A stretch of 44,496 nt of DNA from a virus. Shown piece by piece: positions 16,198-31,440 of the stretch (position 1 is its first letter; each line of letters starts with the position of its first letter). Position numbers and translations under genes: made by a program. Where the stretch lies: IMG/VR virus record IMGVR_UViG_3300009124_000034, positions 1-44,496 of that record; one strand, written 5' to 3'. The notes below the pieces were generated by a model that worked only from the letters and a program-made list of their open reading frames with translations, did not search any database and had not been told where the DNA came from.

Positions 16198-16202
16198 AAA
16201 AA

Positions 16203-16913: not shown

Positions 16914-16939
16914 GGTCTTTGATGGTTGATGTGATTTGA

Positions 16940-17191
16940 TCAGTAGTTGTTGATGGGCTGCCAGTTATCCACAAGCTCAGCAAGCTCTAGGAACTCACGA
17001 TGAGTTGTGGGCAGGGGTTCATCGCCTAGGAGGACAGAACCATCACAGACGGCACTGGCGTACTGCGGTGGGTCGTGGCGCGTAGCAGCTGAAACTTGGA
17101 CGATGTCGTCAACGACCGCCTGGAAGTCAACGGACCAGCCACAAGGACCGTGAATGATCTTGCGGCTTTGGATTTCGATGATGGCGCTCAT
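16940..17191 (-). CDS. Hypothetical protein
   Basis: 83-aa ORF in the leftward block. Confidence 0.5.
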   Translation of the reverse strand: MSAIIEIQSRKIIHGPCGWSVDFQAVVDDIVQVSAATRHDPPQYASAVCDGSVLLGDEPLPTTHREFLELAELVDNWQPINNY

Positions 17192-17228
17192 AGGTGCTGA
17201 GCAGTGGAACTCGACTACCCTAGCACTA

Positions 17229-17537
17229 TTAGAGCGTGAGGTAGGTATGGACGACCGGAAATGTATCAGCCTCGTAACTGCTCATGATGGATACGTCGAT
17301 CCCACTCACCAGGGCCTTTTCCACTTCAGCTTCAAAACGACAGAACTCTTCTGGGCTGTCGCTATAGAAGTCTTCGCAGATTAATTCCGGGAGTCCGTCA
17401 GGGTTGTAAGCGGTGAAGCGCACGACCGCCAAGAAGCCTTCGACCTCTGTGACTTTGTAGAAAGTGATGGTCGTAAGCTCCATGGAGCGCTTCGACACGT
17501 TCATACCAGTCTGGCCTTTATTAAAAACCGGATACAT
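17229..17537 (-). CDS. Hypothetical protein
   Basis: 102-aa ORF in the leftward block. Confidence 0.5.
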   Translation of the reverse strand: MYPVFNKGQTGMNVSKRSMELTTITFYKVTEVEGFLAVVRFTAYNPDGLPELICEDFYSDSPEEFCRFEAEVEKALVSGIDVSIMSSYEADTFPVVHTYLTL

Positions 17538-17562
17538 AATGTAGTAGAACTACACCTGGACT

Positions 17563-17739
17563 ATGGAAGCGCACCGAAGCTTTGCCTTGAATAAGTTCAG
17601 GCGCAGCATTGAGAAGTGCTCGAACGTAGAAGAGCTGCGCGAAATGAACATCAAGACAATGCAGCTCTATTTACGTCAACAGGACACCATCAGCCAACTA
17701 ATCAAAAAAGGCTGGCTGCCCTCTGATCCCAAGGACTAA
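17563..17739 (+). CDS. NblA-like small protein (phycobilisome degradation protein candidate), opposite strand to neighbours
   Basis: Hand-translated 58-aa ORF MEAHRSFALNKFRRSIEKCSNVEELREMNIKTMQLYLRQQDTISQLIKKGWLPSDPKD that exactly fills the gap between two leftward genes. The pattern F.L.K(F/Y)R..(I/V)...S.E(E/D)L...Q.LIK..W resembles NblA sequences recalled from memory. Confidence 0.45.
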   Translation: MEAHRSFALNKFRRSIEKCSNVEELREMNIKTMQLYLRQQDTISQLIKKGWLPSDPKD

Positions 17740-18101
17740 GACCGCAGGCCATGCACTTGAGAACTTATGCCGCGCTCCTTCCATTCCCTAATAAGGGTGC
17801 CAACCTTTTCAAAGCAGGCGTTACGGACGTCGTAAGGAATTGAGCGCATAAACTTTTCAAGCCTGAACATCAAAAGTTCATCACGGTCATCCACAACATC
17901 TGAGAACTTGTCGAAATGCCGGACGCCGTTACCAATGGCGCTAACCAAAAAAACCTGGAACGCCGGGCATTCAAGCAAATCTTTAAGTGTGTACTGATCT
18001 GCAAGCTCTAGAGACTCCTCGGGGAGGATAATGTCGTAAGGCATAAAGTTGTTTTGTAGTAAAGGGGTCATAAAGACCCCCGAGATGCTAGCACAAAGCA
18101 A
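17736..18101 (-). CDS. Hypothetical protein
   Basis: 121-aa ORF in the leftward block. Confidence 0.55.
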   Translation of the reverse strand: MLCASISGVFMTPLLQNNFMPYDIILPEESLELADQYTLKDLLECPAFQVFLVSAIGNGVRHFDKFSDVVDDRDELLMFRLEKFMRSIPYDVRNACFEKVGTLIREWKERGISSQVHGLRS

Positions 18102-18647
18102 TCAGTGTTTTTTGAGCCAGAGCTGCATGGCCTCTTCAATGGCCTGGGCTTTGTTGACCTGGAGCGCAATACAACGCCCCAGGAACTTGCACTTGAGGTT
18201 TTTGTCCACGGCAGAGATCACCATCTTCTCCCGTACAGACGTTGAGGAAGGGATAACCACTGGAAGTGTGTTGCTGACCTCCTGCAACGGCTTAGAGACG
18301 CTGAGATGGCTGGAGTCCTCCCGGATGGATTTAAACCGCGCAATACCGTCTTCAAAGCGCTTGTCAGCGGGCTTGACAAGCTCCAGGTTGACGGCGGTAC
18401 CAACAGGGCAAATCTCTTCGTTGAGCCATGAGGGCGCGAACTCCATGCTGACCATGCCCCTGTGAATGCCCTCTGGGACGTCACAGGATGGGTCCAGGGT
18501 GACAAACAGCAGTTTGGATGTGTTGGTGACGCGCCAGCTGGCCGCAATGCCCCAAGCGTCGTAATGGTTGTACGCCCCATCAACTGCAGGCCAGTTGGTG
18601 TTGCGTTGTTCTGCCATCGAAATAACCATCAGCAAGAAAGAAAGCAA
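18102..18647 (-). CDS. Hypothetical protein (alternative start at 18617)
   Basis: 181-aa ORF abutting the next gene. The first 10 codons are hydrophobic and may be untranslated (MAEQRN at 18617). Confidence 0.55.
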   Translation of the reverse strand: MLSFLLMVISMAEQRNTNWPAVDGAYNHYDAWGIAASWRVTNTSKLLFVTLDPSCDVPEGIHRGMVSMEFAPSWLNEEICPVGTAVNLELVKPADKRFEDGIARFKSIREDSSHLSVSKPLQEVSNTLPVVIPSSTSVREKMVISAVDKNLKCKFLGRCIALQVNKAQAIEEAMQLWLKKH

Positions 18648-18666
18648 GAGGTGCCCGGAGGCACCT
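18634..18666 (-). terminator. Possible intrinsic terminator/attenuator after the primase-helicase gene
   Basis: AGGTGCC-tccg-GGCACCT (minus-strand reading), a 7-bp stem followed by the T-rich tract CTTGCTTTCTTTCTT. It lies between the stop at 18680 and the next start. Confidence 0.35.
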
Positions 18667-18679
18667 CAAGCCTATTCCG

Positions 18680-21124
18680 TTAATCCCAAATTTCATGCGC
18701 CTTGTCCAAAGCATCTTGCAATTGCTCTGAACTGCGATCTTCCTCGCGCGCGCGGGGGCTATGGGACAACGTCCCACTTGGGTCAGATCCCGCGTCAGCA
18801 CTGGATTCCTTAGTGGGACACTCCTGTTTTTCAGAGAAGGTGTCCCACTTAGACGCTCCAGCCTCCAATTCCTTAGTGGGACACTTTTCGTCCTTAGTGG
18901 GACTGTCCCACTTAGAAAGTGAGTTATTGCAAGGGGTTTGGGGTAAGTGGGACACCTCTTTGAAGCCCCCGCGCACGAGTAAAGCTCTGTATTCCAACTC
19001 TGGAGACCCCTTCTTTAGTTGCTGGAGCGTCCTGACCTCCAACACACCCCGGTTGACCAAACGCTGGAGCGCTTTACGGATTGCGCTGACGTTGCCACCC
19101 ACAAGCGGATCAGCGTTGAGTTGCTGGCGCGACAACCACTCGTTTTTGGTTTGGAGGCGGTTCATGATCCGCTCTGCAACAGTTCCAGCCCGTGTTTGAA
19201 GCTCCTCAAGCTTGCGTGCCTCGACCAGGGAAACGGTGAGATCCTCGTTTTGGGTCTGGATAAGCGATTCACCACTGCGGTTCAAGCGTGACTTGCCAAC
19301 GGTGATGACCCGCTGGTCAACCTGAAGACCAGAGTCTTTTTTGGGGTGGCTGATATTCCAGACCTCAGAGACCGCAGCAGAGATGGCTGTAGAGCCTCGT
19401 GCGCCCCCTGTGGCCTTTGCAGCGTGGTGGAGGACCACGATGGTGCAAGCAGGCCAGAGAATGCCGTTCTTGGCGCTCAGCCAGTACAGAGGCTGCGCAA
19501 ACTCAGCCTTGTTCTCATCCCCCGCCTTAGACCCAGAGCAGCTGGAGAGGCTGTCGATGCAGATCATGGACGGCTTCACCCGGTTCATGGTCTTCATGAA
19601 CTGCGCCTGCCTGTAGATGTTGAAGTCAGGCTCGAACCAGAAGTTCTGCCCGTTTTTGATTTCATGCAGGTCGTACTCCTCTTGGAAATCCAGTGAGGAC
19701 ATGTCTGCGTTGAAGTAGATCACTGGACCTGCTTCAACCGGCACCAGCTGATCCTTGAGCTGGAACGGAATGCCATCCACCACATGCTTCATCAGAGCCA
19801 GGGCAGTCGCGCTCTTACCGCACCCTGGATCGCCGTACATCAGCAGGAGATACCCATAGGGCAGCAAACCAGGAATCAGGAAATCCCGAAGACCCCGCTC
19901 CCGGATATCCATGGTTCTGCCCGCTTCCCGTGTCTGCTGCGTGATGTACTCCATAAGCAGCTTTTCAACACCGGATTGGTCTTTGTAACGAGCTTCCATT
20001 GCGATGGAGTGCAGCTCGTAATTCATGCGAGAGGTGTCGTCGAGCTCATAAGCAGCCATACCGCGACGAATGATTTCGTCGTAAGGAAGCCCCACCTCCC
20101 TGGTGCGTTGAACTGCAGCCTCAGCAGCCTCAAGAATTTTCAGGCTGTCCGGCTGGAACCTGGTGCGTTTGGGGTCAATGCGGTCTGCCTGATAGATCAG
20201 GGAGCCCAGTCCAATACGGCCACCAGCTTTGAAGGAGTTCCAAGGCTGCTCACAGGGGTTTTGATTGCCCTGCCATTCATGAGCAAAGTCGAGGTCTTTG
20301 GCAGACCAGGCAGACCAGAGTGTGAGGCCCAAGTAATTGGGCAGTACGGAGTGGATCGCCATGCCAATGCGGATCCAGTGATCCCGCTGCCCAGCACCGC
20401 GAGGTTGGATGACGTCAAGGCAATCAGTGATGATCACCGCGATTTCATCCTCAGTGCGATCACTGAGATCAAGGGCAGTGCGGTTTTTGATGAAGGTGTT
20501 GGGAGCCTTAGCGGCCTTCATCTCCGCTAGGAGCCACGCAGGAGCCTCTGGAACGGCGTCCGGGTCCCCGCTGAAGTCATATTCCCCTGCGGGCCATTTG
20601 CCGTCCTGTGAGCCCGGATAGGCCCCGTAGATGACGCCCTGAGCACCGAACAGGACTTCGTAGCCGAGGTTGTGGTCTTCTGAATGACCAAAGCCACTAA
20701 CCTCATTCCAAAGTTCCTGAGGAACCCGGAAGATATATTTAGCGGCGTTCCTTTTAGTGGAAGTAATAACTGGAGCGCCGTCCAGATCCGAACCCCACTT
20801 ACGCTTGAGCGCAGCAAGATTTTTGTCAACGTCAAGGATGACAAGACCATTGCCTCTGATGCCAGTGAATACACCAACAGCAGAGAGATCAGAGCGCTTT
20901 TCAAGCTGGTGCGCTACGTCATCCCGATTAAGGGATTTGTCAAAGGCAAGTTCAAGGGGATTTTTACCGATGGCTTCTTTGCCGGAGATCATCCGAGCGC
21001 CTTTGCGGTAAATGGGAGCAAGTACCCAACTCAGGGGCAGTTGCTTGACGAGATCTACTAGTCTCATACTAAAGTGAAATAGAGGTTTACAAACGCCCTT
21101 CAGGTTCTGCGGCCTGAGGGGCAT
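18680..21124 (-). CDS. Bifunctional primase-polymerase / helicase (prim-pol + PriCT-like + RecA-type ATPase)
   Basis: VGVFTGIRGNGLVILDVDKN (prim-pol DxD), HWIRIGMAIHS (primase C-terminal type), Walker A LLMYGDPGCGKSAT and Walker B-like MICIDSLSS. The start may be 21066 (MRLVDL) because 21124 sits inside a strong hairpin. Confidence 0.85.
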   Translation of the reverse strand: MPLRPQNLKGVCKPLFHFSMRLVDLVKQLPLSWVLAPIYRKGARMISGKEAIGKNPLELAFDKSLNRDDVAHQLEKRSDLSAVGVFTGIRGNGLVILDVDKNLAALKRKWGSDLDGAPVITSTKRNAAKYIFRVPQELWNEVSGFGHSEDHNLGYEVLFGAQGVIYGAYPGSQDGKWPAGEYDFSGDPDAVPEAPAWLLAEMKAAKAPNTFIKNRTALDLSDRTEDEIAVIITDCLDVIQPRGAGQRDHWIRIGMAIHSVLPNYLGLTLWSAWSAKDLDFAHEWQGNQNPCEQPWNSFKAGGRIGLGSLIYQADRIDPKRTRFQPDSLKILEAAEAAVQRTREVGLPYDEIIRRGMAAYELDDTSRMNYELHSIAMEARYKDQSGVEKLLMEYITQQTREAGRTMDIRERGLRDFLIPGLLPYGYLLLMYGDPGCGKSATALALMKHVVDGIPFQLKDQLVPVEAGPVIYFNADMSSLDFQEEYDLHEIKNGQNFWFEPDFNIYRQAQFMKTMNRVKPSMICIDSLSSCSGSKAGDENKAEFAQPLYWLSAKNGILWPACTIVVLHHAAKATGGARGSTAISAAVSEVWNISHPKKDSGLQVDQRVITVGKSRLNRSGESLIQTQNEDLTVSLVEARKLEELQTRAGTVAERIMNRLQTKNEWLSRQQLNADPLVGGNVSAIRKALQRLVNRGVLEVRTLQQLKKGSPELEYRALLVRGGFKEVSHLPQTPCNNSLSKWDSPTKDEKCPTKELEAGASKWDTFSEKQECPTKESSADAGSDPSGTLSHSPRAREEDRSSEQLQDALDKAHEIWD
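18762..18953. repeat. Iteron cluster: 7 copies of AGTGGGAC/GTCCCACT in both orientations (candidate replication origin) inside the primase-helicase 3' end
   Basis: GTCCCACT at 18771, 18842 and 18905. AGTGGGAC at 18812, 18875, 18896 and 18946. Extended unit CCTTAGTGGGACAC. Includes the palindromes TGGGAC-aac-GTCCCA (18762) and TGGGAC-t-GTCCCA (18898). Confidence 0.7.
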
Positions 21125-21129
21125 TTTTT
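21095..21129. other. Strong hairpin plus T-run overlapping the annotated primase-helicase start codon
   Basis: GCCCTTCAGG-ttctgcgg-CCTGAGGGGC, 10 bp with one G-U, followed on the given strand by ATTTTTTATT. The ATG at 21122-21124 (minus strand) lies in the stem. Confidence 0.5.
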
Positions 21130-21201
21130 ATTGTATGGAGGCTTGTCAAGCCCATGGAACGGTACTAGGGTGGTCGAGCCAACCGAGCAAGAACAGCGCT
21201 C

Positions 21202-21792
21202 ATGGGCTTCATTTCAACCAAAGCATCAAAGATCGCAGCCGGAGGCGGCGGCGGTAATGGCGGATATATGACCGCTTCCAAGCTGGGGGACGGCGAGTCC
21301 TATCGGATTGCCATCCTCAGCGAAGAACCCCTGGAGTATTTCACTGTCTGGGGCGAGACCGACGATGGCCAGAAGAAGCCATTCAGGTTTGCCGACGAAC
21401 CTACTGCTGATGACATCACCAAAGAACTAGGTGACTACAAACAGCGCATGAATTATGAAGGCACCGAACTTGAAAAACCCAAGTTTGCCCTTGCATTTTT
21501 CTGCTTTGACTACGCAGATTCCAAGGTCAAGGTATTTGAAATGGGTCAAAAGACTCTTATCAAAGAACTTGACAACATCTGCAACCAAGAGGATTACTCA
21601 AACCTCCAAGAATGGGACATGGTTGTATCACGTACAGGCGTAAAAATGAACACGGAATACAAAATTCTCCCCGCACCCCGCAAAAAGGGTATGCAGGAGA
21701 CCGTGGATGCAGCCTGGAGCGATGCTGAGGGCAAGGGCTACGACCTCACCCAGCTGATGGTGGGCGGAAATCCATTTGGCGAGACGTTGTAA
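21202..21792 (+). CDS. Putative ssDNA-binding / annealing protein (function from context only)
   Basis: 196-aa ORF with a Gly-rich N-terminus. It is the first gene of a rightward operon divergent from the replication block, upstream of a PD-(D/E)XK nuclease. No diagnostic motif was recognised. Confidence 0.35.
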   Translation: MGFISTKASKIAAGGGGGNGGYMTASKLGDGESYRIAILSEEPLEYFTVWGETDDGQKKPFRFADEPTADDITKELGDYKQRMNYEGTELEKPKFALAFFCFDYADSKVKVFEMGQKTLIKELDNICNQEDYSNLQEWDMVVSRTGVKMNTEYKILPAPRKKGMQETVDAAWSDAEGKGYDLTQLMVGGNPFGETL

Positions 21793-21886
21793 AGACCCAG
21801 ATTTCTGGTATTCTTTGCGAGTAAACGACTCTGATCGGCTGTTTACATCACGCCCAGCTGTTGTTCGCTGCTCCTGTGACTTCAGA

Positions 21887-21916
21887 ACCCCGAGACCCAC
21901 TTCTCGGGGTTTTGTT
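21887..21916 (+). terminator. Rho-independent terminator
   Basis: ACCCCGAGA-cccact-TCTCGGGGT followed by TTTGTTG, 95 nt after the stop at 21792. Confidence 0.8.
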
Positions 21917-21985
21917 GTATCCGCTGGAACGTTGCCATTCACATGCACTGATTTTGTGCTAATCTAAAAAACTGAAGGGGTACAA

Positions 21986-22018
21986 AGAGGCAACCGGCCG
22001 AGCGGTGGCCTCTTTTTT
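21986..22018 (+). terminator. Second rho-independent terminator in tandem
   Basis: AGAGGCAACCG-gccgag-CGGTGGCCTCT with one mismatch, followed by TTTTTTATT. Confidence 0.8.
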
Positions 22019-22051
22019 ATTGGCTATAGTAAATCTGGGAAAGAGTATTTC

Positions 22052-22228
22052 ATGACCTACGGAGCAGAAGACGTCCAAACCCAAGACCAGCGAATGGCCC
22101 GCTTAGAGCACCTATACCGCAAGGACCTCCGCTTCCGTAAGGATCATCCCTGGCACGGTCACTTCACCGGCCTATTCAATCTGTACCGCAACCATCCCGC
22201 AATGACCGAAAACATCAAAAGTGTTTAG
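22052..22228 (+). CDS. Small hypothetical protein (hand-translated)
   Basis: 58-aa ORF MTYGAEDVQTQDQRMARLEHLYRKDLRF... starting 34 nt after the terminator. The next ORF starts 2 nt after its stop. Confidence 0.4.
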   Translation: MTYGAEDVQTQDQRMARLEHLYRKDLRFRKDHPWHGHFTGLFNLYRNHPAMTENIKSV

Positions 22229-22230
22229 TC

Positions 22231-22392
22231 ATGCTGGAACGTACCCCAGAACCCGAAATACATAACGAAGAAGACGGCATGGTTCGTATTAGTATCGGAC
22301 CATACAAAGGCTGGGTAAGCTCACACCATCTCATAGACCCCAAAGTAAATCAGCTTATCCATATATGGAATCAGAATCACAACAAAAGCTAA
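22231..22392 (+). CDS. Small hypothetical protein (hand-translated)
   Basis: 53-aa ORF MLERTPEPEIHNEEDGMVRISIGPYKGWV... that overlaps the start of the nuclease gene. Confidence 0.35.
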   Translation: MLERTPEPEIHNEEDGMVRISIGPYKGWVSSHHLIDPKVNQLIHIWNQNHNKS

Positions 22393-23180
22393 GTACCTTA
22401 CGCACAAGTCGGCTGGTACGAGATGATTCTGGCGATTTCCGCGTATATCGGGACAACGGGGGCAATACTTTTCACTCTGTTACGCACATCCTCAAAGAAA
22501 CAGCCCCACCCCAACAAAAAGAGGCCCTGGAACGGTGGCTGGCTCGACCGGGTGCTATCCAAGACCGGGATTTAGCCGCCAACCGAGGCACCAAAGCCCA
22601 CGACGCCTGTGAATACACCTTAAAAACCGCCGCCCAGCTGGCACGCAAAACCGCCAACAAGCGCAACAGCTGGAAAACCTCCCCAGACGGGCTGGAACGC
22701 TGCCCCGCCCCCATCACCCAATGGGCCCTAGAGAAAGCCGCCCTAGGAGCTCCCAAAGTCCCCTGGAACGCTGCTGGTTACGCCCGCAACCTAAAGGGCT
22801 GGATCCTGGAAAACGTAACCGCCATTCATGCGATTGAATTTTCCATTCATTACAGCCTCAACCAAAACCATGGATTCGCTGGAACGTGTGATGCCCTTGT
22901 AGACGTGAACAAAAAATTGTGCATCGTTGATTGGAAGACCTCTCAACGTGAACGATCAGAGGACATGCTTACGAATTACATCGACCAGCTTGGTGCGTAC
23001 AGCATTGGACTCAAGAGTCTCACCAACATCAAACCGCAAGGCGGCCTAGTAGTGGTGGCACGTCGCACCGGAGCCCCCCAAGTCCGAGAACTAAGCGAAC
23101 TCGAACTTAGGGGTGCCGAATTTAGGTTCCTGGAACGTGCTGAAGCATATTTTTCTGGTTTAAAAGAAGCCGCAAGTTGA
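22365..23180 (+). CDS. PD-(D/E)XK family nuclease (RecB/Cas4-like or lambda-Exo-like exonuclease)
   Basis: GFAGTCDALVD...KLCIVDWKTSQ fits the D...(D/E)xK core. The upstream GTKAHD / SVTHIL motifs are typical of this family. Confidence 0.6.
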   Translation: MESESQQKLSTLRTSRLVRDDSGDFRVYRDNGGNTFHSVTHILKETAPPQQKEALERWLARPGAIQDRDLAANRGTKAHDACEYTLKTAAQLARKTANKRNSWKTSPDGLERCPAPITQWALEKAALGAPKVPWNAAGYARNLKGWILENVTAIHAIEFSIHYSLNQNHGFAGTCDALVDVNKKLCIVDWKTSQRERSEDMLTNYIDQLGAYSIGLKSLTNIKPQGGLVVVARRTGAPQVRELSELELRGAEFRFLERAEAYFSGLKEAAS

Positions 23181-23181
23181 T

Positions 23182-23502
23182 CTACCTGGAACGCTTACGT
23201 GGATAGATCCCCTTGACCTGCCTGATGTTTTTAAGGCAATGGGGGTGGTCTGCATCCCTTTCCCCACGAAGGAAGAACCCACCCCCAACCAAAACGCCAT
23301 TCAGAGGCAGCCTCCTGCTCCCCCAAGCATTCAAAACCACCCAAGGGCCATAGTGCTGCCTGGAGCGCTCTAGGGCCTCCTCCACGCTGTTTGCGAGGGT
23401 CTGGCAGTAGATGATCCGCTCAGCCCCACGTTTAACGGTATCCGTCAACGTGAGACTCACGAGTCTCGTCTCTGTGAAAGTTGGTAGCTGGAGCGTTTTC
23501 AT
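23182..23502 (-). CDS. Hypothetical protein
   Basis: 106-aa ORF convergent with the nuclease gene (stops 1 nt apart). Confidence 0.5.
   Translation of the reverse strand: MKTLQLPTFTETRLVSLTLTDTVKRGAERIIYCQTLANSVEEALERSRQHYGPWVVLNAWGSRRLPLNGVLVGGGFFLRGERDADHPHCLKNIRQVKGIYPRKRSR
23451..23468. promoter_or_regulatory. Inverted pair GAGACTC-ac-GAGTCTC
   Basis: Perfect 7-bp inverted repeat using the same word as the direct pairs at 13777 and 23922. It lies at the 5' end of ORF 23182..23502. Confidence 0.4.
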
Positions 23503-23505
23503 GGT

Positions 23506-23706
23506 TCAAACCTCCGAAGCGCAAACTTCACAAAGATCTTGTTTGATTGAAAGTCGGTAAGGAGCCCAGTCCTTACCGCCATTGATGGATTCTTGCCCAG
23601 TCACACTCCTGGAACGTTGACCATACAAATCGCCTTTAGCGATCGTTGCTTCGCATTGCTTGCAAGTGCGTTCTTTCCTGGAACGTTTGAGTTTCATTAG
23701 AGCCAT
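23506..23706 (-). CDS. Small zinc-ribbon protein
   Basis: 66-aa ORF with CKQC...CEVC cysteine pairs. The start codon lies within the first unit of the 19-bp tandem repeat (alternative start at 23697). Confidence 0.5.
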   Translation of the reverse strand: MALMKLKRSRKERTCKQCEATIAKGDLYGQRSRSVTGQESINGGKDWAPYRLSIKQDLCEVCASEV

Positions 23707-23776
23707 TCATAAGGGAAAAAGCCATTCATAGCGAAAATCGCCATTCATAGCGAAAAAGCCATTCATAGGGTGATTG
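23702..23776. repeat. Tandem repeat, 4 units of 18-19 bp (GCCATTCATAGCGAAAAA)
   Basis: GCCATTCATA at 23702, 23721, 23740 and 23758, each followed by an (A/G)G(C/G)GAAAA-type A-tract. It is intergenic, upstream of the leftward gene 23506..23706. Confidence 0.9.
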
Positions 23777-23921
23777 GCTGGAGCGTCGCCTTGGTGTGGT
23801 TCCGCTTGATGACCAATGTAGCACCACAGGGTCAGGCGTCAAGGTTGGCTGGTACGTGATCGCATACGGGTAAGAATGAGAATCGTTCTCAACAGCAAGG
23901 CGAGTTAACCCGTAGTCGTTA

Positions 23922-23939
23922 TGAGTCTCATGAGTCTCA
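23922..23939. promoter_or_regulatory. Paired TGAGTCTCA sites (operator-like)
   Basis: TGAGTCTCA-TGAGTCTCA, a perfect direct 9-mer pair, intergenic, 10 nt downstream (leftward) of the terminator at 23952-23972. Confidence 0.5.
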
Positions 23940-23951
23940 TCTACGGGCAAT

Positions 23952-23972
23952 AAAAAAGGCCCGAAGGCCCTG
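23952..23972 (-). terminator. Rho-independent terminator (minus strand) with UUCG tetraloop
   Basis: The minus strand reads AGGGCC-TTCG-GGCCTT followed by TTTTTTATT. It starts 4 nt after the stop of gene 23976..24338. Confidence 0.75.
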
Positions 23973-23975
23973 TAG

Positions 23976-24338
23976 TTACTTTGTACTGGTCCGCTTGCGA
24001 GCTTTACCGGCGTCAATCCTGACCTTACGAGTGCTGGGACGTTTACCGACAGATTCCGGTTTCCATTGATTCCAAAGTTCAGCAGGACAGGGACAACCGC
24101 CCTCCATGCTTTCCTGGCGTAGAGACCAAGACGGGATCAGCTCATGTGCTAACTGCCTCCCGCCTTCCTTTCCGTGTCTGCTGTGGAGCGTTAACAAGGT
24201 CTCCCACTCTGCTGGGGTGATCGGGTAACGATCGATTGCCCAGCGCAGATCTTTGTAGGCGATTTTTTCTAGGCGCTTGATTTCGCGCTCTTCTTGGGTG
24301 GAGCGCTTCTTTATTTCTGTGGTGCTGAAAACTGACAA
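23976..24338 (-). CDS. Hypothetical basic protein
   Basis: 120-aa ORF with a TTG start per the track. It is followed by its own terminator and is divergent from ORF 24496. Confidence 0.5.
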   Translation of the reverse strand: MSVFSTTEIKKRSTQEEREIKRLEKIAYKDLRWAIDRYPITPAEWETLLTLHSRHGKEGGRQLAHELIPSWSLRQESMEGGCPCPAELWNQWKPESVGKRPSTRKVRIDAGKARKRTSTK

Positions 24339-24495
24339 GGGTGTCTAGGTGGGGCTACCCAAGCACAATACAGGAAAAACGAAAAATGGCGATTAATTTG
24401 TGGAAAACTGCCTATAGCTAGGGTCTGTTGACTGAGGCGCTTGCGTTTCCCCAGGATCTGTGTTCTACTGTAGTGGTTGACTCCACCTAAAGGTC

Positions 24496-25131
24496 ATGAC
24501 TGCTTCCGCTGATCCTAAGTTCTGGGACTGTCCCACGCTGGACACTGACGAGCACATCCGTCAAAGTTTGGGGGAACCCTTAACGCTGCCAGATTCTGTG
24601 GATCCTGGCTCGTGGTGCGCTGATGCCGAACCAGCCCTGCTTCGCTGGTTTGCGAGGCAGACTCGTCAACAATACGTACAGCGCGTACGGGACAACACCT
24701 ACAATTCAGAAAACGACTTTTCTGCTAATTTCGTTTTTTCCGTGTTTGCTCCAGAGGACGCCCCTGACTGGTTTTTTTCTCCAGACGTCTTTGTTGTCGT
24801 TGAAAAGCACCTAGGTGGTGACGTACGCGGAAATTACGGACCTTTAGCTGTCTACCGCGCCGATTGTTTGGCCGAGACAGGCTTCCTTGATTGGGTCTGC
24901 GGCTGGCACGCTTCCCCGCTTCCGGCTGACGCTGATGCAGAGTGGCCAGCTTTGCAGGCTTGGAACGATCGCTTTGCTATTGGGTACAGCAGTTGGCCGA
25001 CTGGTGAGGTCCGGGACGCTTTGGTCAGTAAAGAACCTGCATGGTCGGAATCTTGCGGTGCCTACCTGGCACGCTTGGAAGACGTTCCGTTTCCGGTTGT
25101 TTTAGAACCGGTTGCGTCATTTTACTGTTGA
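24496..25131 (+). CDS. Hypothetical protein
   Basis: 211-aa ORF, first gene of the long rightward transcription unit. It contains the TGGGACTGTCCCA palindrome at codons 10-13. Confidence 0.6.
   Translation: MTASADPKFWDCPTLDTDEHIRQSLGEPLTLPDSVDPGSWCADAEPALLRWFARQTRQQYVQRVRDNTYNSENDFSANFVFSVFAPEDAPDWFFSPDVFVVVEKHLGGDVRGNYGPLAVYRADCLAETGFLDWVCGWHASPLPADADAEWPALQAWNDRFAIGYSSWPTGEVRDALVSKEPAWSESCGAYLARLEDVPFPVVLEPVASFYC
24523..24535. promoter_or_regulatory. 13-bp palindrome TGGGAC-t-GTCCCA identical to the one in the iteron cluster
   Basis: Exact 14-mer TGGGACTGTCCCAC shared with 18898-18911. It is preceded by CTAAG as in the iteron unit. Confidence 0.55.
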
Positions 25132-25187
25132 GATGCTACAGTAGAAACCGAGCAGACAAGCTCACCAACTATCACCACATCAAACCT

Positions 25188-25421
25188 ATGAACAACCTAC
25201 TAATCGGAACGGGCATCATCGGCGGAGCCTATGGCGGCGTCCTTTGTTTGGCTGGGGCGTTAGGTCTCTGGACCCCGTGCCCGGCTTCCTACAACAGCTG
25301 CAGCGAACTGCAGAGCAAAGCAACGTCAACGCTCCTGATCGGTGGTGCGTTGCTTGGTACCGGTGCCGGATTGTTCGCCATCGGTGCAGAGCGTGACCGC
25401 AAAAATCTGACCCGGATCTGA
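25188..25421 (+). CDS. Small two-helix membrane protein
   Basis: 77-aa ORF from the internal Met of track ORF 25041..25421: MNNLLIGTGIIGGAYGGVLCLAGALGLW...TLLIGGALLGTGAGLFAIGAERDRK. It has two Gly-rich hydrophobic helices and a charged tail. Confidence 0.5.
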   Translation: MNNLLIGTGIIGGAYGGVLCLAGALGLWTPCPASYNSCSELQSKATSTLLIGGALLGTGAGLFAIGAERDRKNLTRI

Positions 25422-25424
25422 ACC

Positions 25425-25601
25425 ATGAAATCAATCCAATTTCTAGGCCAGGACGTCACAGCAGAGCAGACCAAGGACTCTCCTACAGGGTGGTGCGCTA
25501 CCGGCTGGGAAAAGGGTCTACCGGTTTGCCGCAAGCCGATAACCGGCGAAGCTGTCGCTGAATTAATGCGGCGTTTCGATCACGTGGTGCGGACTGTCTA
25601 A
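25425..25601 (+). CDS. Small hypothetical protein (hand-translated)
   Basis: 58-aa ORF MKSIQFLGQDVTAEQTKDSPTGWCATGWEKGLPVCRKP... starting 3 nt after the previous stop. Confidence 0.4.
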   Translation: MKSIQFLGQDVTAEQTKDSPTGWCATGWEKGLPVCRKPITGEAVAELMRRFDHVVRTV

Positions 25602-25741
25602 GTGCTAGGGGAGAGACGCCTAGGGAAGCCTGAGAGGTTAGTTAGCTGTCTGTATGGATTGCGGCTTGCCTCTCTGCTGACAGTAAGGGTTAAAGCGGTT
25701 CAGCTGGGACGCTGCGCCGCAAGGGATCTCAGCTGCGGCTC

Positions 25742-25759
25742 GTATCTACCTGTAGATAC
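25742..25759. promoter_or_regulatory. Perfect 8-bp-arm palindrome GTATCTAC-ct-GTAGATAC in a 280-nt non-coding stretch
   Basis: Read directly and followed by AAAAAATT. There is no convincing ORF between 25602 and 25881. Confidence 0.5.
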
Positions 25760-25881
25760 AAAAAATTACTGTCACAAAACGACATGTTGCACTTCTTCAC
25801 ATAGCGCTCGCGGTTCCGCTTTTGTTGTGATAGGATACGGGAGAACCGGCAGCCCACCTCTAGCCCGGTCCCACCAACAAA

Positions 25882-26055
25882 ATGTCACTAACTCAAGTTT
25901 TCTGGTTACTCGAATCTTGCGGGTATCGTGTAAACAAAATGAAATCGGACGGACGCTATGTCGTCGCCCGTGGATGTTATTCCCCCTGCTACTGTCCGCC
26001 TGGCGGAAGATTTAACAAAACTGAATTAATTGCCTTTGCCGAAAACTTAGCCTAA
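25882..26055 (+). CDS. Small Cys-rich hypothetical protein (hand-translated)
   Basis: 57-aa ORF MSLTQVFWLLESCGYRVNKMKSDGRYVVARGCYSPCYCPPGGRF..., followed 9 nt later by a 10-bp-stem hairpin. Confidence 0.4.
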   Translation: MSLTQVFWLLESCGYRVNKMKSDGRYVVARGCYSPCYCPPGGRFNKTELIAFAENLA

Positions 26056-26064
26056 AAAGTATTA

Positions 26065-26091
26065 CTTACCCCCGCATTTACCGGGGGTAAG
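26065..26091 (+). other. Strong stem-loop (10-bp stem, 7-nt loop) upstream of the terminase genes
   Basis: CTTACCCCCG-catttac-CGGGGGTAAG. There is no T-run, so it is not a canonical terminator. It lies in the 212-bp leader before terS. Confidence 0.6.
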
Positions 26092-26267
26092 GTTCAAGAT
26101 TGCACGCGCTGCGCATGAAGGTAGGGAACCTGCACAAACAACACTAAAATTCTCTACTGTGCTAGGGGGCAGGGGTTCAATCCCTACACTGTGCTACACC
26201 GCCCCACCAAAAAATACGCAACCCATGTAAGATCGCTGGAACGTTGTTACATTGAACTCAAGATTCT

Positions 26268-26735
26268 GTGAATCTCTTGGAAGACAACATCGTCCCTGTG
26301 GGACACGACAACACCAACGAACCAGAAGAAACTGATCTAGTTGCAATCCCTGGATCGCAGGCGATTAACAGGAAGAACTATCGCAAGATTGAGCGTGTCA
26401 AGCGGCTCTATGCACGCCAACTTGAGGGCCTTCCCGCCAAGCAACTGGTCCTAGACCACGCCAAAAAAGAGCAAGTCAGCGAAGAAACCGCCTGGCGCGA
26501 CTGGCGTGAAGTCGCAAAACTCAACGACCAAGACTTCGCCCTGGAACGTGAGACCATGGCCGCCCGCATCTTCGCGATGCGCCAAAAAGTCCTCAATGCG
26601 GCAATGCGTCGAGGCCAAATGCAAACCGCCGCCAGTGTTTTGGATTCCCTGGCACGTCAAGTCGGTTGTGACGAAGCGCAATTAAACCAAGTATTGCCCG
26701 AAATCAACGTCAAAATCCAACCACCCGAGCAATAA
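26268..26735 (+). CDS. terS: Terminase small subunit (by position)
   Basis: 155-aa ORF with a GTG start whose stop directly abuts the terL start (TAAATG). It is helical and charged. No diagnostic motif. Confidence 0.5.
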   Translation: MNLLEDNIVPVGHDNTNEPEETDLVAIPGSQAINRKNYRKIERVKRLYARQLEGLPAKQLVLDHAKKEQVSEETAWRDWREVAKLNDQDFALERETMAARIFAMRQKVLNAAMRRGQMQTAASVLDSLARQVGCDEAQLNQVLPEINVKIQPPEQ

Positions 26736-27986
26736 ATGCCCGCAACCTTGGATTTAGGTCTCCGTCCCGCCCAATACGAAGTATTTAGCTCCCAAAAACG
26801 ATTCCGCGTTTTAGTTGCAGGCCGCCGCTTTGGCAAGTCCTACCTGGCCTGCATCGAACTCTTCATCAAAGCCCTGGCACGTCCAGGCGAAACCTACTTT
26901 TACTGCGCCCCGACATACCGGATGGCCAAGGACATCGCCTGGAAAACGTTAAAAAAGGTAATCCCACCAGAATTTATCACCTCCAAAAACGAAACCGACC
27001 TGAAGCTAGAACTTGTCAACGGTTCCACCATCGAATTAAAGGGCACCGAGAACGCCATGGCCCTGCGAGGCCGTTCTTTAGCAGGTGTGGTTTTAGACGA
27101 AGCCGCCTTCATGGACTCCGAAGTCTGGTTCGAGGTCATCCGCCCCGCCCTCGCCGACAAACAAGGTTGGGCCTTATTCATCAGCACCCCGGATGGAACG
27201 GCCAGCTGGTTTTACGACATGTGGTGCTACGTCCCAGAGGACAAAACCAACGACTGGTCCCGCTGGTGCTACACAACAATTGAAGGAGGCAATGTCCCCA
27301 GTGAAGAAGTCGAAGCAGCCCGCGCTCAACTTGACACGCGCACGTTCCGCCAGGAATTTGAAGCATCATTCGAGAACCTCAGCGGCCTGGTCGCCATCAG
27401 TTTCGCGGACGCCAACATCAGCAAAGACGTCCGCGACCTCCCCGTCCTCCCCCTCTTACTAGGCGTCGACTTCAACGTGGACCCCATGACCGGCATCTGC
27501 GCGGTTAAGAAAGGTGACACTTTATGGATTTTCGACGAAATCATCATGACGGGTGGTGCGACCACCTGGGATTTCTGCGAAGAAGTCCAAAACCGCTACG
27601 GCGTAGACCGCCGCATCATCAGCTGCCCGGACCCTACCGGCGGTGCCCGCAAAACCCAAGGCGTTGGCACGACCGACCACAGCATCCTCCGCAAATCCGG
27701 CTTCACCGTTTCCACCCCCAAAGCCCCGTGGAAGATCCGGGACAAAATCACCTGCGTCAACACCGCCCTCCTCGACGCCACTGGAACGCGCCGCATGTTC
27801 ATCCACCCCCGCTGCAAGGAACTAATCAAATCCCTCCGCACCCTGACCTACTCCCCTGGAACGGGTCTCCCCAACAAAAATCTCGGAGTTGACCACTGCT
27901 TCGACGCCTTGGGCTACCTATGCCTGCAAGTATTTAATCTGGCCAAACCCGAAACCATTGGCACAACAAACTACCGCGTATGGTGA
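26736..27986 (+). CDS. terL: Terminase large subunit
   Basis: Walker A VLVAGRRFGKS and Walker B LAGVVLDEAAF, with a C-terminal nuclease-type region. The 416-aa size is typical. Confidence 0.9.
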   Translation: MPATLDLGLRPAQYEVFSSQKRFRVLVAGRRFGKSYLACIELFIKALARPGETYFYCAPTYRMAKDIAWKTLKKVIPPEFITSKNETDLKLELVNGSTIELKGTENAMALRGRSLAGVVLDEAAFMDSEVWFEVIRPALADKQGWALFISTPDGTASWFYDMWCYVPEDKTNDWSRWCYTTIEGGNVPSEEVEAARAQLDTRTFRQEFEASFENLSGLVAISFADANISKDVRDLPVLPLLLGVDFNVDPMTGICAVKKGDTLWIFDEIIMTGGATTWDFCEEVQNRYGVDRRIISCPDPTGGARKTQGVGTTDHSILRKSGFTVSTPKAPWKIRDKITCVNTALLDATGTRRMFIHPRCKELIKSLRTLTYSPGTGLPNKNLGVDHCFDALGYLCLQVFNLAKPETIGTTNYRVW

Positions 27987-28177
27987 TCACCCCCGAAATC
28001 GAAGAAGCTTTGGGCCTCCTTTACCGAGGCCAAACCAACGTCGCCCTAAAAGCCAAAGAACTAAAAATCCCCCTCCCAAAATTAAAACAACTATTTAACA
28101 CCTACGCCCACCAAAACCCTGTCACCGAAAATGCCTGGAGCGGCAACACCGAGCTAAGCTGGCCATATGTAACCTGA
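27980..28177 (+). CDS. Hypothetical protein
   Basis: 65-aa ORF whose ATG overlaps the terL stop (ATGGTGA). Confidence 0.45.
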   Translation: MVITPEIEEALGLLYRGQTNVALKAKELKIPLPKLKQLFNTYAHQNPVTENAWSGNTELSWPYVT

Positions 28178-28247
28178 GTTTTCTAATGCCTGTACATTAC
28201 GGCCAAGGCAGCAAGAAAAAACCCAAGGGTAAAGGCACCAAAAAGAA

Positions 28248-28270
28248 GTAAGGAGTAAGGAGTAAGGAGT
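28248..28270 (+). promoter_or_regulatory. Triple tandem Shine-Dalgarno (GTAAGGA x3)
   Basis: GTAAGGAGTAAGGAGTAAGGAGT. The last AAGGAG ends 6 nt before the ATG at 28276. The first TAA is the stop of a 21-codon Lys-rich micro-ORF (28186..28251). Confidence 0.75.
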
Positions 28271-28275
28271 CTGTC

Positions 28276-28446
28276 ATGCCTAAAAAACGCGGGTTGTACG
28301 CCAACATCCAAGCCAAACGCAAGCGAATTGCGGCTGGTTCGGGTGAAAAGATGCGCAAACCAGGGTCTAAAGGCGCACCAACCGCCGAGCAGTTTAAAGC
28401 CGCCGCCAAGACCGCCAAAAAACGCAAACCTAAGGGTAAAAAATAG
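28276..28446 (+). CDS. Very basic 56-aa protein (hand-translated)
   Basis: MPKKRGLYANIQAKRKRIAAGSGEKMRKPGSKGAPTAEQFKAAAKTAKKRKPKGKK. It has an exceptional RBS and lies in the head module. Confidence 0.55.
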   Translation: MPKKRGLYANIQAKRKRIAAGSGEKMRKPGSKGAPTAEQFKAAAKTAKKRKPKGKK

Positions 28447-28796
28447 TGGCCATAGTCAACGTCACTGATACCAAGCGCTACACCAACGTCGTCGAATATA
28501 CGGGTGGCACGATGACTGCCGTCAACGACGAGATGCGTATCCACGCCCACGCCTCCGAATATACCTTTGCGTTTGAGGCGAGCGGCGGCGCAAATTTCAC
28601 CCTTGCCTTCGAGGCCAGCTTCAACGGCGGCACCACCTGGTACGAAATCGATACCAGCAAAACGATCAACAGCGACGGTGAGTATGTCTACTACTACTCA
28701 GGTAAGACGAGTTCAACCATCCGCTGCCGCATAGACGCCATAGCCTCTGGCACGCCAAGCATCGTCCCCCACATCGCAGTCACCTTCAACGGTTAA
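28446..28796 (+). CDS. Hypothetical protein (head module)
   Basis: 116-aa ORF with a GTG start overlapping the previous stop by 1 nt. Its composition looks beta-rich. Confidence 0.5.
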   Translation: MAIVNVTDTKRYTNVVEYTGGTMTAVNDEMRIHAHASEYTFAFEASGGANFTLAFEASFNGGTTWYEIDTSKTINSDGEYVYYYSGKTSSTIRCRIDAIASGTPSIVPHIAVTFNG

Positions 28797-28972
28797 TGGG
28801 CACCCGAATTTCCCCCGGTTTCTGCACCCACATGGAAGTAGACGCCGAAACCCGCATGACGGAAGCCACCTTTGCGTTCATGACGCCCCAAGACCCCGCC
28901 GACTTCGCCGCTCTAATGGCCCGCTTAGCATCAGGCATAGAAGTCATGATTGAGGTTGACGATGACGATTAA
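28796..28972 (+). CDS. Small acidic hypothetical protein (hand-translated)
   Basis: 58-aa ORF MGTRISPGFCTHMEVDAETRMTEATFAF...IEVDDDD with a TAATG overlap with the previous gene. Confidence 0.4.
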   Translation: MGTRISPGFCTHMEVDAETRMTEATFAFMTPQDPADFAALMARLASGIEVMIEVDDDD

Positions 28973-29216
28973 GCGCGGCTCCGAGAGCTTTTCAGGCTAC
29001 AACAAACCAAAACGCACACCAAATCACCCCAAAAAATCACACGCAGTCCTCGCAAAAGAGGGCGACAAAGTAAAACTTATCCGTTTCGGCCAACAAGGCG
29101 TCAAGGGTAGCCCCGCTGGAACGGCCCGCAACAAATCCTTCAAAGCCCGCCACGCAAAAAACATCGCGAAAGGCAAGATGTCAGCGGCTTATTGGGCCAA
29201 CCGCGTGAAATGGTGA
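28962..29216 (+). CDS. Conserved small basic phage protein (KP.RTP.HP.K...FG...RH...SA.YW pattern; DUF5872-like from memory)
   Basis: MTIKRGSESFSGYNKPKRTPNHPKKSHAV...IRFGQQG...FKARHAKNI...SAAYWANRVKW. I prefer the ATG at 28962 over the TTG at 28950. Confidence 0.55.
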   Translation: MTIKRGSESFSGYNKPKRTPNHPKKSHAVLAKEGDKVKLIRFGQQGVKGSPAGTARNKSFKARHAKNIAKGKMSAAYWANRVKW

Positions 29217-29252
29217 GTATCTGTCAAAATGAAATAAAGTAGCTATCTAACC

Positions 29253-30671
29253 GTGGTTTACAGCGCAAACATCCCGCCAACTGGAGCCTCGGTTAGCGAA
29301 TCCCCCTTTGTCCGCGACCTTGAAGTGATCGCGATGATGGAGGATTGGCAGGTCATGGCTGCCGTCACCCGAGGCACCAACTACATCCGCGACCTCTGCG
29401 ACACCTACCTCCCCCAAGAACCCCGCGAAGACGACGAAGCCTACGAGACCCGTGTAGACCGCAGCGTCCTATCCCCGTATACCAGCCGCCTAATCGAAAC
29501 TGCCGCTGGAGCGATTTTACGCAAGCCCATCCACATTGAAGGTGATGATTACTGGCTGAATTTAAGCCAGGATATTGACGGTTTAGGTTCAAATATCAAT
29601 GAATATGCGCGTCGTGCCTTGGTTAGCAGCCTTACCTACGGCCATAGTGCTGTGCTTGTTGACTACCCCGCAGCAACCGGCGCTCGAAATCTGGCTGAAG
29701 AACGTGCCATGGGACGACGTCCCTATTTTGTGCATGTGGACGCCCCACAAATTTGGGGATGGCGTCAAGCCGACTACACGATGCCCGGTAGTCCCCTTAC
29801 GCAAATCCGCATCCACGAATATGCAACCCGCCCCCTAAACGATTTTGGCGAAGAACAAGTCGAACAAATGCGGGTCATCTACCCCGGCAAATACGACTTG
29901 TACACGTTGGGGCAAGAAGTCGTGGAATTCTCCCAAACCGGAGGATTCAGCCTGGACGAAATTCCAGTGGTGCCCATTTACAGCAACCGCCGGGGCATGT
30001 TGCGGTCTCAACCACCCCTGCTCGACATCGCCAACCTCAACATCACGCACTACCAACGCCAAGCCGACCTAATCCACGCGCTCCACATCGCCGCGATGCC
30101 CACGCTTGTGCTAGAGGGCTGGGACGACACCCTTGGCACGGCAACGATGGGCGTGAACTACGCCATTGCGATGACACCTGGCAACAAGGCGTATTACGTG
30201 CAAGCGGATGCTACAAGTTTCGACGCCCAGATGCAGGAGCTGCAATCACTAGAGGGTCAAATGTCCACATTGGGCGTAACCAAGCTCTTCGGGCAAAAGT
30301 TTGTCGCCGAGTCTGCCGAGGCCAAGCGCATTGACCAAGCACAAGGCAACTCTGTGTTATCCATCATTAGCCAAGAGCTAGAGAGCGCTCTAAACCAAGC
30401 CTTTGGTCTTGCCGCGAAGTATGTAGGCATCGAACCCCCCGAAGTCAGCATCGACCGCGACTTCGATTACTACCGCCTAATCGGCCAAGACGTTGCCGTC
30501 CTATCTGACCTGAATACCAAAGGCAAGCTCAGCGATGAGATGTTGCTTGAGATCCTGCGTCGCGGGGAAATCCTGCCCGACAACACCAACATCCAAGACG
30601 AAATAACCAAGATCGCCTCAGCCGAACCCGCCCCAGCCCCTGCTGTAATTGAAAACAACCCTGTAGAATAG
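29253..30671 (+). CDS. Portal protein (by size and position)
   Basis: 472-aa ORF with a GTG start, between terminase and scaffold/capsid genes. The 9-mer AGTAGCTAT lies 7 nt upstream. Confidence 0.75.
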   Translation: MVYSANIPPTGASVSESPFVRDLEVIAMMEDWQVMAAVTRGTNYIRDLCDTYLPQEPREDDEAYETRVDRSVLSPYTSRLIETAAGAILRKPIHIEGDDYWLNLSQDIDGLGSNINEYARRALVSSLTYGHSAVLVDYPAATGARNLAEERAMGRRPYFVHVDAPQIWGWRQADYTMPGSPLTQIRIHEYATRPLNDFGEEQVEQMRVIYPGKYDLYTLGQEVVEFSQTGGFSLDEIPVVPIYSNRRGMLRSQPPLLDIANLNITHYQRQADLIHALHIAAMPTLVLEGWDDTLGTATMGVNYAIAMTPGNKAYYVQADATSFDAQMQELQSLEGQMSTLGVTKLFGQKFVAESAEAKRIDQAQGNSVLSIISQELESALNQAFGLAAKYVGIEPPEVSIDRDFDYYRLIGQDVAVLSDLNTKGKLSDEMLLEILRRGEILPDNTNIQDEITKIASAEPAPAPAVIENNPVE

Positions 30672-30692
30672 TATCGTTTAACTTAATTCCCT

Positions 30693-31409: not shown

Positions 31410-31440
31410 GCCCCCGTAAACCCGTTTTTTAGGAGCCCAA

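Follow-up and report, generated by a model that had tools for sequence, protein, structure and literature searches.

The DNA analysed here, the window, is the whole of IMG/VR virus record IMGVR_UViG_3300009124_000034 (positions 1 to 44,496; 44,496 nucleotides). The element in question is the short word CTGGNRCG (N, any base; R, purine), which is repeated throughout the window and is densest over a recombination exonuclease gene. The first 77 bp recur as a direct repeat at the other end (positions 1-77 = 44420-44496), a sign that the assembly is circular and the phage genome, of 44,419 bp, complete. Its genes fall into a rightward tail block, a leftward replication block and a rightward recombination module that starts with a gene for a protein like single-strand annealing proteins (SSAP) or single-stranded DNA-binding proteins (SSB). 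Small leftward open reading frames (ORFs) follow, and then the rightward packaging and structural genes (Table 1).

CTGGNRCG occurs 110 times on the plus strand, which is the given strand, and 25 times on the minus strand, while the order-2 Markov expectations are 7.8 ± 2.8 and 6.0 ± 2.6, respectively. Dinucleotide shuffles gave 11.8 ± 3.1 sites on both strands together, compared with the 135 observed, and a gapped-word scan run without prior bias ranked CTGGNNCG first (z = 37). Every fixed base is specific: the single-base variants of the word all have at most 19 copies on the plus strand, and position 6 is a purine in 110 instances and a pyrimidine in 15. The base at -1 of the plus sites is preferentially G (50/110) and seldom T. 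The commonest forms in the window are CTGGAACG and CTGGAGCG; CTGGCGCG has just 6 copies. At the fifth base after the motif (offset +12 from its start) C is enriched (42/110) and T is depleted (10/110); the C enrichment is also seen in relatives, and the T depletion is weak. A sigma-54-like promoter (CTGGCACG-N4-TTGC) was considered and rejected on inspection of the logo, which has no TTGC downstream. Plus sites are found in all three reading frames as well as in non-conserved DNA; per kb, sense genes have 2.3 of them, antisense genes 3.3 and unannotated DNA 2.2. Since all frames are used and the antisense density is similar or higher, neither codon usage nor transcription direction explains the pattern. 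The enrichment is genome-wide rather than confined to one local array.

Within this genome-wide set, the peak at 21.9-24.0 kb is significant against uniform placement of the 110 plus sites (scan statistic, P ~0.001). A sequence-only reading of the same DNA had listed 18 sites here, from 21924 to 24034, as the densest array of the genome, running across the coding-strand switch at 23180/23182. All 18 do match CTGGNRCG on the plus strand, no complement site lies between 18854 and 27230, the local peak is confirmed, and 8 of the sites are antisense in the leftward ORFs. The copies at 21924, 23778 and 23849, described there as intergenic, plausibly lie outside real genes, as the ORFs that cover them have no homolog in any of 80 relatives. 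Two further statements about the location do not hold. The density was said to stay elevated to about 29.5 kb, but 24-29.5 kb has ~2.9 sites per kb, near the genome mean of 2.5 per kb; and the array, said to sit immediately left of terS/terL, ends 2.2 kb before the putative terS and follows the exonuclease gene, not terL.

The exonuclease gene itself carries 7 sites, 5 of them in frame 0, where they encode Leu-x-Arg. To place the peak across the phage family, 80 exonuclease-anchored loci, which are phylogenetically related, were aligned on the exonuclease start. In this profile the plus sites reach 33-fold over expectation between 0 and +2 kb of the exonuclease start, and the peak stops ~2-2.5 kb beyond that start. 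It sits 2-6 kb upstream of terL in all relatives, with a standard deviation (SD) in position of 507 bp from the exonuclease start versus an SD of 1137 bp from terL. The offset between peak and terL correlates with the spacing between exonuclease and terL (r = -0.90), which ranges from 2.0 to 5.8 kb. The peak is also kept in family members with an unrelated terminase (24-30% identical), and it reaches into DNA that has no homology between relatives. The packaging genes, to which the sequence-only reading had attributed the position of the array, therefore do not account for it: the peak stays with the exonuclease over the whole 2.0-5.8 kb range of terL spacing and through the change of terminase. 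The dense array goes with the recombination module and is part of a genome-wide, two-compartment polarity system around the replication and recombination core.

The members with the unrelated TerL (L265, L269, L276, L292, L302, L304-L306, L309, L311 and L256), in which terL follows 2.0-2.8 kb after the exonuclease start, represent a packaging-module swap within an otherwise syntenic family. The exonuclease consensus contains three Leu-Glu-Arg tripeptides (ALERW, GLER and FLER), and Leu-Glu-Arg written as CTG-GAR-CGN fits the motif. A site spacing of ~54/71 bp within the gene recurs in relatives that are just 50% identical. The protein sequence of the exonuclease and the DNA signal may thus have shaped each other.

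The second compartment is defined by the minus sites. In the window, the two-way split that best separates the strands isolates the 19-27 kb arc, which has 38 plus and 0 minus sites versus 72 plus and 25 minus sites elsewhere (Fisher p = 1.3e-4), and the polarity boundary at ~18.9-19.0 kb coincides with the 3' end of the PrimPol gene. Family-wide, minus sites thin out abruptly: at -3.5/-3.0 kb relative to the exonuclease start, their density drops from 1.86 to 0.17 per kb. The distal replication zone has 195 minus sites family-wide versus 29 expected (6.7-fold), while the first 2 kb from the exonuclease start (window ~22.4-24.4 kb) has 9 versus 26 expected (0.34-fold), a depletion whose significance is overstated because the loci are phylogenetically related. 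Opposite-strand pairs 6-50 bp apart occur at 15529/15535 (overlapping), 18159/18175, 13525/13550 and 9848/9870, all of them in the replication module.

Since minus sites are enriched solely left of the boundary, the arrays of the two orientations converge on the PrimPol-SSAP-exonuclease segment, over and above a global plus bias that has the same direction as the structural and packaging operon. The co-orientation and the above-chance density of the array, noted earlier from sequence, are confirmed; left of ~19 kb, opposite-strand sites are enriched. The organising centre looks like the PrimPol-SSAP-exonuclease segment, in a layout resembling that around a replication origin, rather than a pac end alone. 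The map fits an origin between ~19 and 22.4 kb; no origin-like AT-rich region is evident near the 19-kb boundary.

Table 1 Motif compartments, family profile zones and annotated genes of the window
Feature	Position	Strand	Remarks
Plus-strand CTGGNRCG set	121..44125	+	110 sites, ~1 per 400 bp
Densest CTGGNRCG run	21924..24041	+	18 co-oriented sites in 2.1 kb; covers small ORFs, exonuclease, leftward poorly conserved ORFs
Minus-site zone	5971..18861	-	15 of the 25 minus sites of the window, densest beside the boundary
Arc without minus site	18862..27229		38 plus sites, 0 minus sites
Family zone, distal replication module	-10 to -3.5 kb from exonuclease start		plus 11x, minus 6.7x expectation
Family zone, PrimPol and SSAP	-3 to 0 kb from exonuclease start		plus 14x, minus 0.64x
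Family zone, exonuclease and variable DNA	0 to +2 kb from exonuclease start		plus 33x, minus 0.34x
Family zone, packaging and structural genes	+2 to +10.5 kb from exonuclease start		plus 10.7x, minus 1.1x
Tail and tail-fibre block	46 to ~11.2 kb	+	last gene is the small HNH endonuclease
Small HNH endonuclease	10909-11217	+	Pfam; also in fetched relatives, family-conserved; candidate nickase
Replication block	11.35-21.1 kb	-	ThyX, Zn-ribbon/helix-turn-helix protein, sigma-70 family factor, PolA, DUF3310 protein, PrimPol
Sigma-70 family factor, full-length	12309-13193	-	regions 1.2, 2, 3 and 4; conserved across family
PolA	14036-15964	-	within replication block
PrimPol-PriCT_2-helicase (AAA_25)	18680-21124	-	Pfam matches
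SSAP/SSB-like recombination protein	21202-21792	+	PHROG matches; starts rightward recombination module
PD-(D/E)XK exonuclease	22365-23180	+	after SSAP/SSB-like gene and small ORFs; anchors dense cluster
Small ORFs, function unassigned	23182-24338	-	poorly conserved in relatives; 8 antisense CTGGNRCG sites
Putative terS	26268-26735	+	assigned by position only
TerL, Terminase_6N type	26736-27986	+	followed by portal, capsid and tail genes in a rightward block

An abundant, uncultured aquatic phage family carries this polar motif. In IMG/VR, 273 relatives were found by a capsid search and more than 544 by an exonuclease profile, from marine, estuarine and freshwater samples and with GC contents of 0.36-0.60. 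Across 80 loci anchored on the capsid gene (0.8 Mb in total), 963 sites versus 108 expected are on the capsid strand and 124 versus 165 on the opposite one. Distant members, whose sigma factors are 50-62% identical, keep the motif, the logo and the polarity (35 sites versus 1.5 expected, 33 versus 2.4, and 12-13 versus 1.3). At aligned positions, single sites are retained in 35.5% of cases versus 22.3 ± 3.8% for control 8-mers. Individual sites come and go, but density and polarity persist.

The PrimPol diverges across the family, to 33-46% identity overall and 35-65% in PriCT_2. The motif is unaltered at 41-52% PriCT_2 identity (L223, L225, L229 and L248) and altered in L314 (IMGVR_UViG_3300027859_000149), whose PriCT_2 identity is 35% and whose GC content, 0.36, is also very different. 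This member has the variant polar motif TGG(A/T)(T>A>G)CG, with 13 copies of TGGATCG, no requirement for the 5' C and no purine rule; L313 and L312 look intermediate. One further family member, L236 (IMGVR_UViG_2786546711_000001), has an identifier whose format suggests an IMG single-genome dataset, not a metagenome.

No near-identical cultured phage was found, and the cultured relatives are 25-48% identical at the protein level. The closest for capsid and terminase are cyanophage S-2L (39-43%) and Synechococcus and Prochlorococcus siphoviruses (28-30%). Both S-2L and KBS-S-2A have several gene types in common with the window, including an SSAP or SSB gene beside a nuclease gene. The sigma factor of the window scores highest against the cyanobacterial RpoD family (RpoD/SigC types); its nearest named cellular counterparts are mostly cyanobacterial, with only ~40% identity and on contigs that are not picocyanobacterial. 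Together, the sigma-factor and capsid affinities suggest a host among marine Synechococcus and Prochlorococcus. These picocyanobacteria have an E. coli-type recBCD (PMC5101192). Searches for the host with sigma-factor and ThyX homologs returned phage-borne proteins only, and psbA-anchored look-ups returned mostly cyanophages.

Outside the family, the motif is absent from S-2L, from T7-like and T4-like cyanophage contigs, including one that shares its sample with a family member, and from the viral single-particle genome with the closest capsid (AG-345-A17). KBS-S-2A has a 20:9 strand bias of the motif, but the variant CTGGNRCT has 19 copies there, so that the bias is not specific. Among cellular sequences, 21 kb of Cyanobium sp. 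Maggiore-St4-Cus, which is not shown to be a host, has 9 sites versus 11.6 expected. About 100 kb of high-GC cellular cyanobacterial contigs, none of them shown to be from a host, has 93 sites versus 100 for the control with a pyrimidine (Y) at position 6. In further cyanobacterial contigs the motif stands at ~1.4-2.3 times the mononucleotide expectation, with no clear enrichment. As a positive control, the host-word method recovered HIP1 as the top word in Nostoc.

Several other observations touch the host and the use of the word in searches. The AG-345 single-cell viruses were rejected as cyanobacterium-associated, since AG-345 is an extracellular-particle sort gate. Labels of metagenome-assembled genomes (MAGs) on family contigs ("Limnobacter sp." and "Opitutae") are weak evidence of host. 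One such contig, L223 (GCA_012270025.1, contig JAAXJE010000030.1), is 16 kb long with 35 polar sites, lies in a MAG labelled Limnobacter sp. and encodes a sigma factor with a RefSeq WP_ accession; its binning is either an error or a hint at a non-cyanobacterial host. A triple-motif scan of IMG/VR (L084-L203) returned mostly tandem repeats within coding sequence, spaced at multiples of 9, 12, 15 or 18 bp; its true positives are relatives, and a few high-GC loci are ambiguous. We take the periodic CTGGNRCG repeats to encode collagen-like or Gly-rich proteins, a recurrent false positive for clustered-motif scans. Two other phages have asymmetric words of their own: CTGNTGG in KBS-S-2A (L205; 52 copies versus 14 on the opposite strand), and CTGNTGC / CTNNTGCT in Marine virus AG-345-A17 (L395; 21-28 copies versus ~1 expected). 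Both are probably driven by coding sequence or repeats.

We tentatively propose that CTGGNRCG is a Chi-like polar control sequence read by a RecBCD-type enzyme of the host, a reading that falls a little short of being probable. It is ranked first for its sequence kinship to known Chi sequences and its close match to documented phage examples. Like Chi, which acts in only one orientation relative to the entering DNA end, the motif is a short (8-nt), asymmetric and non-palindromic word. Its CTGG core and the G preferred at -1 relate it to GCTGGTGG, GCTGGCGC and GCTGGTGCTCG. The signal is independent of the type of terminase and unchanged where PriCT_2 identity has fallen to 41-52%, both of which support a reader of this kind. 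In lambda-like layouts, the active orientation is the one in which RecBCD meets the sites from their 3' side (PMC12315714). As the sequence-only reading had argued, a RecBCD-type enzyme that enters right of the array and moves left would read the plus sites from the 3' side, which agrees with this geometry (PMC12315714).

We infer the reader, its host and the following steps from these observations. A host RecBCD-family helicase-nuclease would read the motif on the 3'-ended strand while degrading phage DNA from a double-strand end, which might be that of injected linear DNA, a post-packaging cut, a rolling-circle tail or a broken fork. On recognising the motif, the enzyme would cease to degrade and load RecA instead, which would protect the genome and seed recombination-dependent replication and concatemer formation. 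With ~1 site per 0.4 kb, an enzyme coming from any permuted end would be halted quickly. Plus sites, densest over the exonuclease region, would face left-moving enzymes, and minus sites, left of ~19 kb, would face right-moving ones, so that both sets would point at the PrimPol-SSAP-exonuclease core. Chi sites in bacterial chromosomes point at oriC in the same convergent layout.

Several findings weigh against a Chi-like role. The motif is no commoner than control variants in the 21 kb of Cyanobium and the ~100 kb of cyanobacterial contigs, none of which is shown to be from a host, and unrelated cyanophages and the distant relatives KBS-S-2A and S-2L are without it. Its absence outside the family means that the signal follows the phage lineage, as a phage-encoded reader predicts. 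The phage has its own SSAP and exonuclease, under the densest cluster, so it does not lack a Rec module. In lambdoid phages, Chi is abundant where a Rec module or an anti-RecBCD function is absent and is usually sparse near Rec modules (PMC12315714). Furthermore, it is the exonuclease gene rather than terL that the cluster follows, and a density of one site per 0.4 kb and two degenerate positions surpass any described Chi case. That the lineage with the variant form is the one whose PriCT_2 diverges most would fit recognition by the PrimPol equally well. As for the specific idea that a Chi-like array guards the non-packaged end, its Chi-like part has published precedent in phages LLS and MD8 and is backed by the GCTGG core, whereas its positional argument is borne out only in part. 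Overall, the earlier interpretation is partly supported, with no link to a host RecBCD in ~120 kb of candidate cyanobacterial DNA.

An unlikely but serious alternative is that the motif is where the PrimPol-helicase encoded by the phage recognises its template or is loaded. Plus sites would then prime the lagging strand of rightward forks and minus sites that of leftward forks, from an origin in or near the PrimPol-SSAP segment, with the dense cluster as an origin-proximal initiation zone. The cognate primase is encoded in the same genome, with PriCT_2 and AAA_25 helicase domains, and we take its PriCT_2 to be equivalent to the template-binding helix-bundle domain of NrS-1 PrimPol and pRN1 ORF904. 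Such a reader would account for a signal confined to the phage family and missing from candidate hosts and unrelated phages, for the polarity switch at the PrimPol gene, which fits a replichore layout, and for a cluster that follows the replication and recombination module rather than terL. The variant motif of L314, at 35% PriCT_2 identity the lineage most divergent in this domain, is also in line with it. Priming of the lagging strand would give a polarity map identical to that of Chi, so the map does not discriminate between the two.

What counts against a PrimPol reader is, first, that the motif stays the same in lineages whose PriCT_2 is only 41-52% identical. Second, plus sites are still enriched 11-fold left of the boundary, which would require an extra rolling-circle phase, and the GCTGG likeness to Chi would have to be coincidence. 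We know of no case of a primase site enriched 10- to 30-fold genome-wide. The sites of T7 primase and DnaG have 3-4 nt. Characterised lagging-strand primase sites have just 3-4 nt (PMC8718748). This alternative is about equally doubtful in its broader form, in which no host enzyme reads the word. It would instead be a phage 'replication code', a polar signal of 8 nt present hundreds of times in the genome, without which the PrimPol-helicase, or some other conserved protein of the phage, could not prime or load. If true, it would make replication self-specific, set fork direction around an origin in the PrimPol-SSAP-exonuclease segment and evolve together with its reader, of which the L314 variant might be an example.

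It is improbable, and more so than recognition by the PrimPol, that the motif is a polar guide or binding site of another protein, such as a translocase or packaging signal like the FtsK-orienting polar sequences (KOPS), a 'self' mark against a phage nuclease or a target of base modification. Its polarity is strict, with the inverse orientation at 0.34-fold where plus sites are densest, although that figure comes from phylogenetically related loci. KOPS show a similar orientation bias. The polarity also agrees with the direction of the structural and packaging operon, and the signal is family-specific. On the other hand, the motif survives exchange of the terminase type, which weighs against TerS or TerL as its reader, and we rejected the terminase in that role because the motif stays with an unrelated TerL. 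The ORFs screened yielded neither a methyltransferase nor a base-modification gene, and no candidate translocase was identified.

We consider it still less probable that a phage endonuclease, for example the conserved HNH protein, makes site-specific single-strand nicks at the motif, as in T5 and Pseudomonas phage tf/Rembedalsseter. The conserved HNH gene of the window family and a published motif give this idea its basis: WACTRTGAC, a 9-nt degenerate word on one strand only, is ~13-fold enriched, is kept in 61 related phages and absent outside them, and lies toward the right side of terL-oriented genomes (PMC11780129). Yet 110 nicks per 44 kb would be about ten times any described case, and between 6 and 19 kb plus and minus sites stand 6-50 bp apart, where nicks at both would break the genome. 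The distribution is also not confined to one strand, as minus sites are enriched 6.7-fold family-wide in the replication zone.

A by-product of codon usage, amino-acid repeats or base composition is vanishingly improbable: frame 0 sites do encode Leu-x-Arg, with several Leu-Glu-Arg in the exonuclease consensus, and high-GC coding DNA and collagen-like repeats often contain the word because of what they encode, but the spread over three frames, both gene orientations and non-conserved DNA, the purine rule (110 versus 15) and the order-2 Markov expectation of 7.8 led us to reject it.

If the Chi-like reading is true, CTGGNRCG would be the first Chi candidate from an aquatic host that is uncultured, possibly one of the picocyanobacteria. 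The RecBCD of such a host has never been characterised, and its Chi could then be read directly from phage genomes. The Chi-rich strategy would then reach beyond the lambdoids, to phages with recombination genes of their own, and at ~5 times the earlier density. Should the reader be a phage protein, the motif would represent a novel type of self-marking signal spread over the whole genome. Under either reading, the word is a simple sequence-only marker with which to recognise the family and orient its contigs, and the convergent two-orientation layout locates the probable replication and recombination centre of an abundant uncultured phage group.

Compared with known systems, the motif has counterparts of three kinds. 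The sites of archaeo-eukaryotic PrimPols provide a precedent for 8 nt: NrS-1 PrimPol reads the 8-nt 5'-TTTGGTTA-3' and 5'-GTG-3' through its helix-bundle domain, and pRN1 ORF904 reads GTG (PMC8718748). The window likewise has a PrimPol-PriCT-helicase fusion, and the polarity suits a lagging-strand template; genome-wide enrichment, as seen here, is not described for the NrS-1 and pRN1 sites (PMC8718748). The nick motifs of tf/Rembedalsseter and T5 (PMC11780129) resemble the motif in being degenerate, asymmetric, more than 10-fold enriched, family-specific and concentrated upstream of terL. They are distributed on a single strand in ~9-13 copies per genome, whereas the window has ~135 copies, with both strands used in one zone.

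Among Chi sequences, E. coli Chi, 5'-GCTGGTGG-3' (PMC12315714, PMC5041463), has the (G)CTGG core and the length of ~8 nt in common with the motif. Pseudomonas Chi, 5'-GCTGGCGC-3', agrees with (G)CTGGNRC at each overlapping base, and chi*, 5'-GCTGGTGCTCG-3', has GCTGGTGC in common with it. Unlike the characterised Chi sequences, the motif of the window requires a terminal CG. The activity of E. coli Chi depends on bases 4-7 of the 3' flank, where purines are preferred; a purine preference of this type was sought in the 3' flank of the motif and not seen, and the window shows C there.

The closest parallels are Chi-rich phages. Phage LLS has 23 Chi sites, 20/23 of them in the active orientation and half of them in the terminase-proximal 22% of the genome, and in phage MD8 the most frequent octamer is GCTGGCGC, the Pseudomonas Chi validated by biochemistry, with 32 copies that are co-oriented (PMC12315714). 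LLS and its relatives (E. coli), MD8 (P. aeruginosa) and P1 have no anti-RecBCD function (Zheng et al. 2025, PMC12315714). The window phage differs from LLS and MD8 in having 110 copies (1 per 0.4 kb) rather than 20-32, with two degenerate positions, and in showing no host-genome enrichment in the candidate DNA sampled. It also encodes an SSAP and an exonuclease, with the peak on top of them, and has a second zone of opposite orientation that makes the layout convergent. No Gam, GamL, Abc2, MuGam or gp5.9-like inhibitor was found with PHROGs, Pfam and PADLOC on the small ORFs of this genome, in which many ORFs are unannotated; the phage may resemble LLS and MD8 in this respect. As in those phages, one of the most frequent words of the genome is an asymmetric octamer built on GCTGG, a trait of the whole group, and its copies are mostly co-oriented with the terminase and structural genes and apparently denser toward the terminase-proximal end.

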